64,000 nucleotides of DNA from the NCBI GenBank assembly GCA_000996205.1, contig LBYO01000005.1:1728-65727 (forward strand). Reading direction: 5' to 3'. The translations under genes and the position numbers were made by a program. Positions 9,019 to 61,824 of this stretch are shown here, in pieces (positions within the stretch are counted from its first letter, which is position 1; each line of letters opens with the position of its first letter). The notes below the pieces were generated by a model. It had not been told where the DNA came from. It did no database searches and worked only from the letters and a program-made list of their open reading frames with translations. Source of the stretch: Parcubacteria group bacterium GW2011_GWA1_40_21. GTDB taxonomy: Bacteria; Patescibacteriota; Minisyncoccia; Phycocordibacterales; GWA1-40-21.

Positions 9019-9040
9019 TCTTTCATTTTCGAAAAATTTT

Positions 9041-9078
9041 CAACATCCGATGTCCAAATATTTGGACATCGGATGTTG
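9041..9078. repeat. REP-like palindrome dimer flanking the RAYT gene
   Basis: caacatccgatgtccaaatatttggacatcggatgttg is a perfect 38-bp self-complementary sequence. Confidence 0.8.
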
Positions 9079-9107
9079 AAAAATAAGTCATCGTAAAATG
9101 TAAATTC

Positions 9108-9829: not shown

Positions 9830-9852
9830 CTTTGGACATCCGATGTCCAAAT
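9830..9852. repeat. REP-like palindrome upstream of RAYT
   Basis: tttggacatccgatgtccaaat. Confidence 0.8.
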
Positions 9853-9891
9853 ATTTTGTTTAAAAAGATAATTTTGTGATAACATTGTGGA

Positions 9892-14533: not shown

Positions 14534-14567
14534 TTTTGGACATCGGATGTCCAAAATGTCCAAAATA
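14534..14567. repeat. REP-like palindrome copy in the typA-pyrH intergenic region
   Basis: tttggacatcggatgtccaaaatgtccaaaat. Confidence 0.7.
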
Positions 14568-48887: not shown

Positions 48888-49063
48888 GGTCTCTATCCTT
48901 TATTAAAATGTCAAAAGATCTAAAATTTATTATTTGATGATAGGATATTTAATGCAAAATATCAATAGAGCGACCCAGATTCAAGTTCGCAGAGCAGGAA
49001 TTTCTCCCTCGCCTCTAAATTTTTTCAGTCAAAAAATTTAGGACTGGGCACAGGCTCGTAAAA

Positions 49064-49293
49064 TTTTCTGCTGAAAATTTTATACTCCGCCCTTCGAATC
49101 CTGCCCGTCCCGATGTTCATCGGGACTCTGGGCGGACAATTCCGCTTCGCTGCATTGTCCGCCCAGCAGTAATTTCTCGCCTACAGCGCGTGATTTTCTT
49201 GTTTCGCCGACTCAACATAGAAAATCCTTCGAATCCTGACGAGAGCCAAGCAGTTGGCTCTCTCTGAGCGGACAATTCCGCTTCGCTGCATTG
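49064..49293. repeat. tRNA-Lys-associated modular repeat region (two tandem units)
   Basis: two copies of gcggacaattccgcttcgctgcattgtccgcccagcag (38 bp; includes the tRNA 3' acceptor strand), two ccttcgaatcctg T-arm-like fragments, and a ttttctgctgaaaa hairpin. Confidence 0.7.
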
Positions 49294-49366
49294 TCCGCCC
49301 AGCAGGATTCGAACCTGCGACCAATCGCTTAAGAGGCGACTGCTCTACCAACTGAGCTATAGGCGG
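49294..49366 (-). tRNA. tRNA-Lys (anticodon CTT)
   Basis: manual fold of the minus strand: acceptor ccgccta/tgggcgg, D-arm gctcagttggtagagc, anticodon loop ctCTTaa, T-arm gcaggttcgaatcctgc; no encoded CCA. Confidence 0.8.
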
Positions 49367-49605
49367 ATTTTTATAAAAATAGGACTTGCGCATTTGGATG
49401 CAGTTCGAGGCGCGAGCTCGGCTTGCGACCAAGCTGTATTATTATACTGCGCGGGAGCAAACGAGCGAAGCAACGAAGAAATGCGCCGAACGCACAAGTC
49501 CTACAAAAATCTAGCAAATTTAGGACATAGTGGCAAATTTAAAACCCCACCTTTAAAACCCCACCGCTTTGAGTTTGCGATGGGGCTTTGTTCTTAAAAT
49601 ACGAT

Positions 49606-50230: not shown

Positions 50231-50300
50231 ATTTTCTATTTAATTTATAGCATAAAATAATTTCTTTGCATATCCAAAAAATAAAAAGCAGAAAATTAGA

Positions 50301-50436
50301 TGGTGCCTGAGGTGGGAATCGGTCACAACTCTTTTACTGGAGCAAAAGGTCGCGACCCCGCCTCGCGCCGTCGCGCTCCGGCCTTCGATTCCCACTGACC
50401 AAATAAAAAACCTCATCAGAAATGAGATCTTTTATT
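50301..50436. repeat. tRNA-Leu-associated modular element (terminator, inverted T-arm copy, GC-rich core, hairpin, direct copy of the tRNA 3' 21 nt with CCA)
   Basis: read on the minus strand: ggtcagtgggaatcgaagg (inverted T-arm) + cggagcgcgacggcgcgaggcggggtcgcg + cttttgctccagtaaaag + gtgac + cgattcccacctcaggcacca. Confidence 0.75.
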
Positions 50437-50523
50437 TGGTGCCTGAGGTGGGAATCGAACCCACACGAGCTTTCGCCCATAACATTTTAAGTGTTACGTG
50501 TATACCAGTTTCACCACTCAGGC
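50437..50523 (-). tRNA. tRNA-Leu (anticodon TAA), class II with long variable arm, CCA encoded
   Basis: minus-strand fold: anticodon stem-loop taaca-cTTAAaa-tgtta, long variable arm gggcgaaagctcgtg, T-arm gggttcgattccc, terminal cacca. Confidence 0.8.
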
Positions 50524-51012
50524 TTTGTTTTTTAACATATTTCTTCCCCTATGTGTCGGTTTTAAACTATGGCAATTCGGACATAATATTCTTAAATTTT
50601 CCAATCTATTATCATGCCTATCGCCGTTTATGTGATCAAGTTCTAATGGAAGATACCCTTCTTTGTTTCTTGTGGACCAACCGCATTCTTCACAAAATTG
50701 TTTTTTTAAATTTTCACTAAATAATCTTTTTTTGAGCTTAAAACTTTGATAAGAAGAATCTTTCTTAAGAATAAACTCTAGAGGAGTAATTGGTTTGCCT
50801 ATGCCCCTCAAGCCCTTGTTCCAAGCTTTTCCTTTGAAATGAGAAATATTAAATTTATATTCTTTAATATATTTTTTAATTTGCTCATAATTTCCACCCG
50901 CCGCTACTAATCCTATCTTTTTTAAGACTTGTCTATAACTGGTTGAATCTTTAACAGCGACTTTTAATTGAGATATTTCCCACGATCTTTTCCTTCTGTT
51001 AATTTTCATCAA
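50518..51012 (-). CDS. stand-alone HNH endonuclease
   Basis: CEECGW ... LELDHINGDRHDNRLENLRILCPNCHS classic HNH/zinc-finger motif. Confidence 0.8.
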   Translation of the reverse strand: MMKINRRKRSWEISQLKVAVKDSTSYRQVLKKIGLVAAGGNYEQIKKYIKEYKFNISHFKGKAWNKGLRGIGKPITPLEFILKKDSSYQSFKLKKRLFSENLKKQFCEECGWSTRNKEGYLPLELDHINGDRHDNRLENLRILCPNCHSLKPTHRGRNMLKNKA

Positions 51013-61434: not shown

Positions 61435-61724
61435 ACAGCGAGTCTTCGAGTTGGGCAGGAAGAAGCGCGGGGCGCTTCTGTGAGGGATTTGAAGCCCGAT
61501 TGAGCCGAGCTTGGAGTGTCTTCACGAACAAGCGAGCCAATCGGGGTACTGAACGAGTAGCGTTCAAATCCCTCCCTACGCACTAAGAAAAAATGCCAGA
61601 TTCTTTATCTGGTATTTTTTGTTAGTCGCGGAGGGATTTGAAGGTCGGAGCGCGACGGCGCGAGACGGGGTCGCGGGATTTTTCAGCAGAAAAATACCCG
61701 TGACCAAATCCCTCCCTACGCACC
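61435..61724 (+). repeat. tRNA-Tyr-associated modular elements: two tandem units, each = inverted T-arm copy ... direct copy of tRNA-Tyr 3' end; unit 2 has the GC-rich core shared with the tRNA-Leu element
   Basis: gagggatttgaag (61491, 61631), ttcaaatccctccctacgca direct copies at 61564 and 61704 (the latter followed by cca), core cggagcgcgacggcgcgagacggggtcgcg 61645..61674, hairpin ttttcagcagaaaa. Confidence 0.75.
61587..61620 (+). terminator. rho-independent terminator inside the tRNA-Tyr element array
   Basis: gccagat tcttt atctggt followed by attttttg. Confidence 0.6.
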
Positions 61725-61824
61725 ACTTCGCTTTGTTTTCACAAAGCTACTCGGTGCAAGCACAAAATTGAGTCCCCGAAATTTCGGGCGTAAAAAAACA
61801 TTCCTGATGGAATGTTAAGTTTAA

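Follow-up and report, generated by a model that had tools for sequence, protein, structure and literature searches.

Stacked hairpin cassettes with tRNA-derived arms behind a tRNA-Lys gene of a Parcubacteria group bacterium, and their relatives in Patescibacteria

The tRNA-Lys locus

This study concerns the DNA that directly follows a tRNA-Lys gene of Parcubacteria group bacterium GW2011_GWA1_40_21. The gene lies in a stretch of 64,000 nucleotides (contig LBYO01000005.1 of assembly GCA_000996205.1, positions 1,728 to 65,727), which is referred to here as the window and numbered from its first letter. Two repeat units occupy 48982-49292 on the minus strand, immediately 3' of tRNA-Lys and on the same strand. 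Together with the last 13 nt of the gene (49293-49305), which constitute the first sense copy of the tRNA 3' end (S1), they form a feature of 48982-49305 that extends as far as 48982 because a third, decayed copy of the tRNA 3' end is found at 48985-49004. Its parts are given below, where labels such as L016, L060 and L074 denote compared loci or contigs from other genomes.

49293-49366, minus: tRNA-Lys(CTT), CCA not encoded (ARAGORN; Rfam tRNA, 73.2 bits)
49262-49305, minus: proximal 44-nt repeat, composed of S1 (13 nt) and hairpin hp1 (repeat search, folding)
49241-49261, minus: side hairpin of unit 1, GAGAGCC-AACTGCTT-GGCTCTC (folding, trailer comparison)
49226-49238, minus: antisense T-arm of unit 1, CAGGATTCGAA, with junction GG (repeat search)
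49170-49225, minus: body of unit 1, an ATTTTCT...AGAAAAT hairpin and then GCGCTGTAGGCGAG-AAATTA (homologous to unit 1-like bodies in L066 and L068)
49126-49169, minus: distal 44-nt repeat, composed of S2 (the sense arm closing unit 1) and hp1 of unit 2 (repeat search, folding)
49107-49126, minus: side hairpin of unit 2, GTCCCGATG-AA-CATCGGGAC (folding)
48982-49107, minus: three-way junction of unit 2 (covariance model R2, 20.3 bits, E=2.9e-4, full model)
48985-49004, minus: S3, the decayed third tRNA-Lys 3'-end copy GAAATTCCTGCTCTGCGAAC, then native trailer TTGAATCTG... (repeat search, comparison with L060)

The direct repeat (49126-49169 and 49262-49305) is 44 nt long with a single mismatch, has a spacing of 136 nt and brackets 92 nt only. 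Read on the minus strand it is CTGCTGGGCGGACAATGCAGCGAAGCGGAATTGTCCGC[C/T]CAGAG, of which the first 13 nt are the 3' end of tRNA-Lys. The original prediction, made from the sequence alone, had recognized this tandem duplication of 3' end and hairpin; the duplication is real, but its size and spacing had been put at 38 bp and 140 bp. In hp1, GGGCGGACAAT is followed by the loop GCAGCGAAGCGGA and by ATTGTCCGCTC, and the 3' arm repeats the acceptor 3' strand in antisense, so that the acceptor 3' strand and CAAT pair with the downstream ATTGTCCGC[C/T]C. The acceptor-strand stem GGGCGGACAAT/ATTGTCCGCCC, which had also been predicted, was recovered in both repeat copies by inverted-repeat search and by the z-scores of the DNA folds (z = -6.3 and -5.0).

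Each repeat copy is accompanied by an inverted T-arm fragment, CAGGATTCGAAGG, at 49091-49103 and 49226-49238. The antisense sequence CAGGATTCGAA present in both units is exactly complementary to the T-loop and 3' T-stem strand of the tRNA (TTCGAATCCTG), ends at T54 and is fused to GAAGG (CAGGATTCGAA|GG). A T-arm-like fragment beside each copy had been foreseen, and the description needs amending in one respect: a side hairpin, different in the two units, stands between hp1 and the fragment. Since the units also contain the anti-acceptor GTCCGC[C/T]CAG, the last ~24 nt of the tRNA are represented in each of them by an antisense copy in two parts. In unit 1 the side hairpin is inserted between the anti-acceptor and anti-T-stem segments, and it is a conserved module of other tRNA-Lys trailers, with covarying stems of ~7 bp and usually a AACTGCTT loop. 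The sense copy that closes unit 1 is exact (CTGCTGGGCGGAC, 49157-49169), whereas its counterpart in unit 2 is decayed; at the position of the latter, L060 has an intact AATCCTGCTGGGCGGAC.

Beyond GAAGG the bodies of the two units differ. Unit 2 proceeds from its antisense T-arm (49091-49104) through GAAGG-G-CGGAG, the hairpin P2, CGAG-C, a P3-like hairpin (49015-49041) and GAGGCGAGGGAG to the sense arm. Its P2 is an AT-rich hairpin (49059-49082) carrying TTTTCAGCAGAAAA. As had been reported, this motif (49064-49077) recurs in a tRNA-Tyr unit of the window at 61680-61693 (two matches, 0.24 expected).

A common plan and a three-way-junction fold

Further units with the same plan are found behind two other tRNA genes of the window.

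50300-50398, minus: canonical member behind tRNA-Leu(TAA) (model, 95-101 bits)
61628-61726, plus: canonical member, unit 2 of tRNA-Tyr, whose P3 carries TTTTCAGCAGAAAA (model, 107-109 bits)
61479-61586, plus: unit 1 of tRNA-Tyr, a second body type with the same antisense and sense arms (also in L030, L068, L080 and L082)

Behind tRNA-Leu and tRNA-Tyr the order is again hairpin (in many cases like a terminator), antisense T-arm, GAAGG, body and sense copy of the 3' end. A GC core is common to the Leu unit and Tyr unit 2, and the second body type consists of a stem, GTACTGAA and a small hairpin. In the family at large, a unit is built of S (the tRNA 3' end), Z (a hairpin directly after it), A (the antisense of the last ~12-24 nt of the tRNA, with its end exactly at T54 and frequently with a side hairpin inserted where acceptor and T-stem meet), GAAGG-N-CGGAG, P2, CGAG-N', P3 and again S, which repeats the tRNA in sense orientation, starting near C56 and reaching the 3' end. 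Such a cassette is non-coding and ~110-140 nt long.

Because A pairs with S, the cassette closes as a three-way junction in which pairing of the two arms gives P0, P1 and P2 are provided by the GC core, and P3 is a hairpin of 16 bp. In a structural alignment of 27 units the paired cells amount to 95.7%, against 35-46% with slid partners; 19 pairs are changed on both sides, values as high as those observed were reached in 0/500 shuffles, and RNAalifold independently returned the same fold. The N of GAAGG-N-CGGAG covaries perfectly with the base after CGAG (CG in 23 units, UA in 2, AU and GC in 1 each). P3 contains a bulged A and a G46·U74 pair that is invariant (27/27). In P3, G·U exceeds A·C by about 40:1, and the fold therefore belongs to the tRNA-sense strand, whether in RNA or in single-stranded DNA (ssDNA).

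Several known motifs were compared with the fold by eye and rejected. The CUGAUGA/GAAA arrangement of a hammerhead is absent around the junction, a canonical K-turn clashes with the N:N' pair and its strands read AG instead of GA, and the pairing expected of a box C/D-type guide is absent next to the putative box. Mimicry of a T-arm by the core fails since the invariant GGGG cannot pair with variable T-stems. Kissing of the side-hairpin loop (ACUGCU) with the P3 loop (AGCAG) is inconsistent across units, for example in L060.

Two covariance models were applied to the window, the narrower R1 and R2, which was rebuilt from 58 copies in other genomes; their E-values come from a shortened calibration. 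Of all R2 matches in the window, the three best were those of Tyr unit 2, at 107 bits, of the Leu unit, at 95 bits, and of Lys unit 2, at 20.3 bits (E=2.9e-4); together with the architecture that they have in common this supports the proposal that the Lys, Tyr and Leu elements are one family. Lys unit 2 reached only 13.6 bits (E=0.05) with R1, while the R2 alignment covered the whole model, beginning in the antisense T-arm and ending in the decayed sense arm; Lys unit 1 was matched by neither model. The statement that the Lys array has no GC core was only half right, as unit 2 keeps the junction GAAGG-G-CGGAG...CGAG-C and obeys the N:N' rule (G:C). Unit 1 has GAAGG only and so lacks the junction feature. 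The canonical P3 (GGUCGCG...CGUGACC, with the invariant G·U and bulged A) occurs in neither Lys unit. In its place unit 2 has an arm of the form GUGCCCAGUCC-hairpin-GAGGCGAGGGA, as in the tRNA-His unit of L024, to which its 3' half corresponds block for block with an identical fold. Judged by sequence, Lys unit 2 is a divergent member of the family. Unit 1 is a mosaic relative by the same standard, because its hp1 is common with unit 2, its side hairpin with the L060 unit and its body with cassettes of L066 and L068.

Distribution in Patescibacteria

The core pattern GAAGGNCGGAGCGCGACGGCGCGAG (25 nt, 24 specified bases) was searched as an exact match in species-representative genomes and was found in 37 contigs. 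All those with a lineage name (32/32) are Patescibacteria, the other 5 being labelled only 'bacterium'. The lineages comprise Saccharibacteria, Paceibacteria, Parcubacteria, Kaiser-, Berkel-, Nomura-, Campbell-, Moranii- and Zambryskiibacteria, and Minisyncoccia; in IMG/VR the pattern had zero matches. A tRNA gene, of many isoacceptors, or a tmRNA gene lies at most 600 nt upstream on the same strand in 30/39 exact-core units. In most of these 30 the antisense arm joins the core where it reaches the complement of T54, and 39-40 nt past the motif the sense arm sets in at about C56; the sense arm of exact-core units often reaches the tRNA 3' end. Around 48 tRNAs without an exact core, copies of at least 9 nt were found downstream in 10 sense and 9 antisense cases, against 1 and 0 upstream. 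The covariance model added 23 further divergent copies in the same loci, several per locus, in which P2 is swapped for other GC- or AT-rich hairpins and the junction and N:N' rule are kept.

Identical core and P3 variants stand behind many different tRNAs. When the arms of 29 units were compared at discordant positions, the antisense arm sided with the tRNA in 37 cases and with the sense arm in 10, which indicates that both arms track the neighbouring gene and not merely each other. An exception is seen behind tRNA-Val(TAC) in L017 (1017-1227), where the arms match each other and the 3' end of another tRNA (…TTCCTGCCAGGGGCACCA). The neighbour need not be a tRNA: in L016 units interleave with 5S rRNA copies and have 5S-derived arms, and in L021 (7190-7310) a unit stands right after the stop codon of a protein-coding gene, with arms from local sequence (GATTGACGT ... 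ACGTCAATC - core - TTGACGT). Nested insertions within cores were found in L020, L023, L035 and L039.

Some loci show further peculiarities. The 5S nest of L016 (4090-4640) contains one 5S copy that seems to be interrupted by a unit with a sense arm copied from 5S, an intact copy with ATCGAATCC / GGTTCGATTC on its flanks, and another unit, which is in the opposite orientation. A spacer of the form ATGATYCGCRAGRA-hairpin-TTCGAGYG...ATCATT recurs between tRNA and antisense arm in L012, L018, L038, L041 and L044; L012, L038, L041 and L044 have an antisense arm ending in ...GATGAGAAGG or ...GACGAGAAGG in place of ...TCGAAGG, which L018 keeps.

Variation between relatives at tRNA-Lys

With the 30-nt 3' half of the window tRNA-Lys as query, 59 metagenome contigs carrying the same 3' half were retrieved; they contain 53 different trailers, many of them empty. 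Counted per distinct locus, the antisense T-loop motif is absent from 33 and occurs once in 11, twice in 2 and three times in 1, and some of the loci without it carry cores with arms from the acceptor end and trailer. The comparison with related genomes that had been called for revealed strain differences in the presence, type and order of units. Along 1,364 nt the identity of L074 to the window is 100%, and exactly the 136-nt unit 1 is missing from it. L060 has the left and right flanks of the window and a single canonical GC-core unit, whose sense arm (AATCCTGCTGGGCGGAC|TTGAAT) is intact where that of the window is decayed. L066 and L068 have a common right flank, but L066 has a U1-like unit ahead of a U2-like one, and L068 has the order U2-like, type B, U1-like. 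Outside tRNA-Lys, related Saccharibacteria differ in which tRNA-Gly is occupied. Among the 59 loci, no element bracketed by tRNA-Lys copies more than 350 nt apart was found except the three-unit L068 array itself.

In the side hairpin of the first unit after tRNA-Lys, L068 and L097 have the same stems and an inverted loop (AAGCAAGCAAACTGCTTTGCTTGC versus AAGCAAGCAAAGCAGTTTGCTTGC, CTGC <-> GCAG), a difference that suggests hairpin-loop inversion by template switching.

Relation to known systems

Searches against Rfam 15 at gathering and permissive thresholds passed only tRNAs, with mir-961, YrlA and sX4 far below threshold. A published description of the family was not found in the full-text literature, in a search that included the core sequence as text, and the family is apparently undescribed. 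The nearest related paper deals with ordinary att-derived tRNA fragments (PMC9897764).

Integrase att sites are known from tRNA and tmRNA genes, with a sublocation at the T-loop, according to the work quoted in that paper (Reiter 1989, Williams 2002, as cited in PMC9897764). The units resemble them in the direct repeat from T-loop to 3' end, which is present at tRNA-Lys, in having tmRNA among their targets, and in what att-site integration leads to, namely a functional gene rebuilt from the incoming copy and, after serial events, arrays with decaying outer copies. In contrast to att-site insertions, the bracketed units are ~90-140 nt long and hold no integrase or other gene, and they carry an antisense tRNA copy and a conserved structured core, the same core being combined with arms for many tRNAs.

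The nearest parallels are the attC cassettes of integrons and the attP of CTX phage in its folded form. The integron attC is a palindrome with inverse-complement outer arms that acts as a folded, strand-specific substrate and has RYYYAAC/GTTRRRY core sites. Like integron cassettes, the units are discrete, arrayed beside a fixed site, variable in number and order, and endowed with a strand-specific conserved fold. They differ in lacking IntI/attI (no tyrosine-recombinase domain was detected in the open reading frames (ORFs) scanned) and ORFs of their own. Their arms (TTCGAATCC... and its complement) copy the neighbouring stable-RNA gene and do not conform to RYYYAAC/GTTRRRY, and their interior is conserved in sequence, whereas that of attC is conserved in structure only. 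The attP of CTX phage is folded ssDNA in which inverted copies of the chromosomal target mimic the target duplex, as is the case in other elements that exploit Xer. Here the likeness lies in two inverted target copies, a few tens to about 90 nt apart, and in the integrated order of target, inverted copy, spacer and direct copy; the units differ in having no phage genome and in targeting a tRNA 3' end, not dif.

Two other groups of sequences invite comparison. REP/REPIN-RAYT, BOX, Correia and ERIC sequences are likewise short, non-coding, hairpin-forming, multicopy and modular intergenic elements, and the genome has a RAYT-like gene with REPs. However, the REP that flanks this gene is another sequence, and the units are tied to stable-RNA 3' ends and possess target-derived arms, which are missing from REPs. 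Functional tRNA 3' trailers, such as 3'ETS-leuZ, also exist. These are non-coding and directly 3' of a tRNA, with which the units would be co-transcribed (as at tRNA-Lys), but the units hold antisense and sense tRNA copies, stack in arrays and vary by strain.

Interpretation and alternatives

Any explanation has to accommodate the anatomy of the units, their strand-specific conserved structure, their distribution in the Candidate Phyla Radiation (CPR), the differences between strains in presence, absence and order, and the decay of the outermost sense copy. The one that we favour, to which we give about an even chance, is that the tRNA-Lys trailer consists of two stacked non-autonomous insertion cassettes that recombine at the tRNA 3' identity segment through a trans-acting enzyme. 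A cassette would enter by recombination within the segment of identity from T-loop to 3' end, and the copy brought in by the cassette would restore a functional tRNA end, so that the newest cassette would adjoin the tRNA and older ones would be pushed outward. By analogy with attC or the CTX attP, the recombination substrate may be a folded single strand comprising the A/S stem and the conserved core, on which the putative enzyme would act in trans. Through the shared tRNA-derived blocks, unequal or homologous exchange could then add, remove and rearrange cassettes, yielding mosaics such as unit 1 and a clean 136-nt polymorphism. At the level of sequence, the duplication from T-loop to 3' end, the tmRNA targets, the stacking with outer decay, the gain, loss and re-ordering among strains, and the nesting are together the classical signature of site-specific insertion into stable-RNA genes.

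Several points weigh against such cassettes. All-versus-all clustering of ORFs around the 37 core loci, carried out for an enzyme shared near the units, returned spurious read-through ORFs and syntenic housekeeping genes only, and no integrase, transposase or reverse transcriptase recurs beside these loci or stands beside the Lys array. No full-length autonomous relative was present at the tRNA-Lys loci, no excised or circular form of a cassette was seen, and a true empty/filled pair with identical flanks at tRNA-Lys was not found, the flank being common only to filled variants. The presence or absence of unit 1 could equally come from deletion between the 44-nt repeats. The model leaves unexplained how both arms are re-matched to each new target. 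The invariant core, compensatory changes and conserved wobble are equally expected of a functional RNA, and since no terminator lies between tRNA-Lys and the array, the array should be transcribed as a trailer of the tRNA.

These last observations belong to the alternative of a cis-acting or trailer-derived functional RNA, whose antisense arm would pair with the tRNA from T-loop to 3' end or with a decoy sense arm. We hold this to be unlikely on balance, though a serious contender, and assign the same rank to its elaboration, in which the core binds a protein or is catalytic and the RNA controls 3' maturation, quality control or stability of the tRNA or yields an acceptor-like small RNA. The fold with its invariant G·U and bulged A is specific to the tRNA-sense strand, phylum-level lineages share one invariant core, the antisense arm agrees with the tRNA more than with the sense arm, and in a predicted fold of tRNA-Lys with its terminator-free trailer the latter pairs with the 3' half of the tRNA (z = -9.1). 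A functional RNA fits less well with patchy occupancy among close relatives and strains, with units that stack, nest and decay, and with the terminator-like hairpin and T-run that separate tRNA and unit at many loci, including Leu and Tyr unit 2 of the window; nor does it account for units behind a protein gene and in a 5S rRNA nest with locally derived arms, and no Rfam family matches. It is possible, if rather doubtful, that the units represent something categorically new, a gene-less, self-retargeting element or RNA of Patescibacteria whose ~100-nt three-way-junction core would settle behind stable-RNA genes and copy both arms from the local target. This might proceed through fold-back or template-switch synthesis or a guide-like pairing step, after which the element would serve in recombination as a folded single-stranded substrate, or would work as an RNA that is catalytic or recruits proteins. 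Another proposal dispenses with dedicated mobility and invokes local tandem duplication, by unequal crossing-over or slippage, together with fold-back template switching, the likeness between loci being convergent. The nearly identical 44-nt blocks 136 nt apart and the difference of exactly one period in L074 are what it predicts, and S-Z-A palindromes on stable hairpins would be expected from fold-back template switching. Yet the Lys units differ in their side hairpins and have unrelated bodies, an identical core occurs in 37 contigs of distant lineages behind many tRNAs, and covariation points to selection on the fold. Each body type moreover recurs elsewhere in other orders, a recurrence of modules across genomes by which the proposal, in our view very improbable, is largely refuted.

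Two further alternatives name an enzyme. One of them, which we regard as improbable, has the cassettes mobilized as ssDNA hairpins, in REP/REPIN fashion, by the Y1 (HUH) transposase-like protein of the genome:

9108-9809, minus: Y1_Tnp/RAYT-like ORF, 233 aa (HUH (NHYHLL) and YIHFNP motifs; NCBIfam 35.7 versus a cut-off of 80)

This ORF has 3,890 homologues at E<=1e-10; among the matches listed, the top ones are ~57-66% identical, and all but three of the listed top matches with a source name are CPR lineages. The units, for their part, are hairpin-rich and strand-specific, and a sequence often seen in hp1 loops is GCGAAGC, known as a DNA mini-hairpin of great stability. Set against this, the NCBIfam score is under the cut-off, homologues are absent from the 657 kb of fetched loci (local patches only), and the palindrome flanking the gene, GGACATC[C/G]GATGTCC, differs from the trailer core and is absent from tRNA loci. 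In the window GGACATCSGATGTCC occurs only at 9041, 9064, 9628 (1 mismatch, inside the gene), 9834 and 14538. As its own REP is a different palindrome, the RAYT-like protein is a candidate only for the mobilizing enzyme. The other alternative, advanced in the original prediction, reads the repeats as nested att remnants of the integrase-mediated entry of a Fic/EcoRI-methylase/RhuM/GmrSD island into tRNA-Lys. Direct repeats of a tRNA 3' end do lie beside a strain-variable accessory region. Nevertheless, no distal tRNA-Lys 3' copy exists at the DnaJ-side boundary (~41.5 kb), where one had been expected, or elsewhere in the window, no integrase domain was detected in the 40 window ORFs scanned, and the repeats enclose only 92 nt. 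In addition, strain contigs (same groundwater population, PRJNA268031 and others) lose homology at ~47006, ~2 kb away from the repeats; a TPR gene and two small ORFs intervene, and the TPR gene stays with the tRNA in L060 and L074. The missing distal repeat and the position of the boundary rule out the units as the junction of this large island, and the reading has hardly any probability left. A weaker att idea survives, in that every small unit has the appearance of an insertion by which the tRNA 3' end was duplicated.

Neighbouring features

Just upstream of tRNA-Lys, an 18-nt inverted repeat (TAGGACTTGCGCA...TGCGCAAGTCCTA) delimits a block of ~125 nt (49380-49503). No strain contig lacks this block, which separates the tRNA from a promoter-like site (49536-49508, minus). 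At 49538-49565 a 14-nt tandem duplication (TTTAAAACCCCACC x2) forms part of a terminator-like hairpin and is present as a single copy in strain contig L005. The strain contigs diverge at ~47006 and at ~49539/49698, flanking a conserved block of tRNA-Lys, the TPR gene and two small ORFs, and L002 and L005 have a PEMT-family gene in place of the 150-aa ORF and GmrSD of the window.

Between tRNA-Cys and tRNA-Leu, an HNH-endonuclease ORF (50518-51012, minus) ends at the 5' edge of tRNA-Leu. It looks like an inserted free-standing gene, because the two tRNA genes are adjacent in L019 with no gene between them. Other ORFs stand directly 3' of tRNA-Lys or tRNA-Arg in L063, L100, L103 and L030, and their hand-read translations start HTH-like; those of L100 and L103 contain a LAGLIDADG-like motif (...AHMLFDGTIK) and, on these hand-read translations, may be homing endonucleases.

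The palindrome of the RAYT-like gene is carried by its flanks (9038-9083 and 9832-9860) and also occurs at 14538-14552. A 65%-identical homologue in L106 (Parcubacteria) has the same flanking palindrome, and the homologue in L108 a different one. Gene and palindromes of the window constitute a classic RAYT/REP arrangement, which is apparently widespread in CPR.

Significance

CPR/Patescibacteria represent a large share of bacterial diversity, with tiny genomes and few recognized mobile elements or regulatory RNAs. If the units are mobile, they would constitute a new way, based on enzyme-free cassettes, of targeting and repairing essential stable-RNA genes, and would provide a ready-made strain marker. 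If they are functional RNAs, they would be a widespread new player in the tRNA biology of organisms that are becoming genetically tractable. The units may also explain assembly breaks, as many core matches are at most a few hundred bases from the beginning of the retrieved stretch, a point that is not necessarily a contig end. Under either reading, the antisense and sense arms that match their target pose a concrete mechanistic question.

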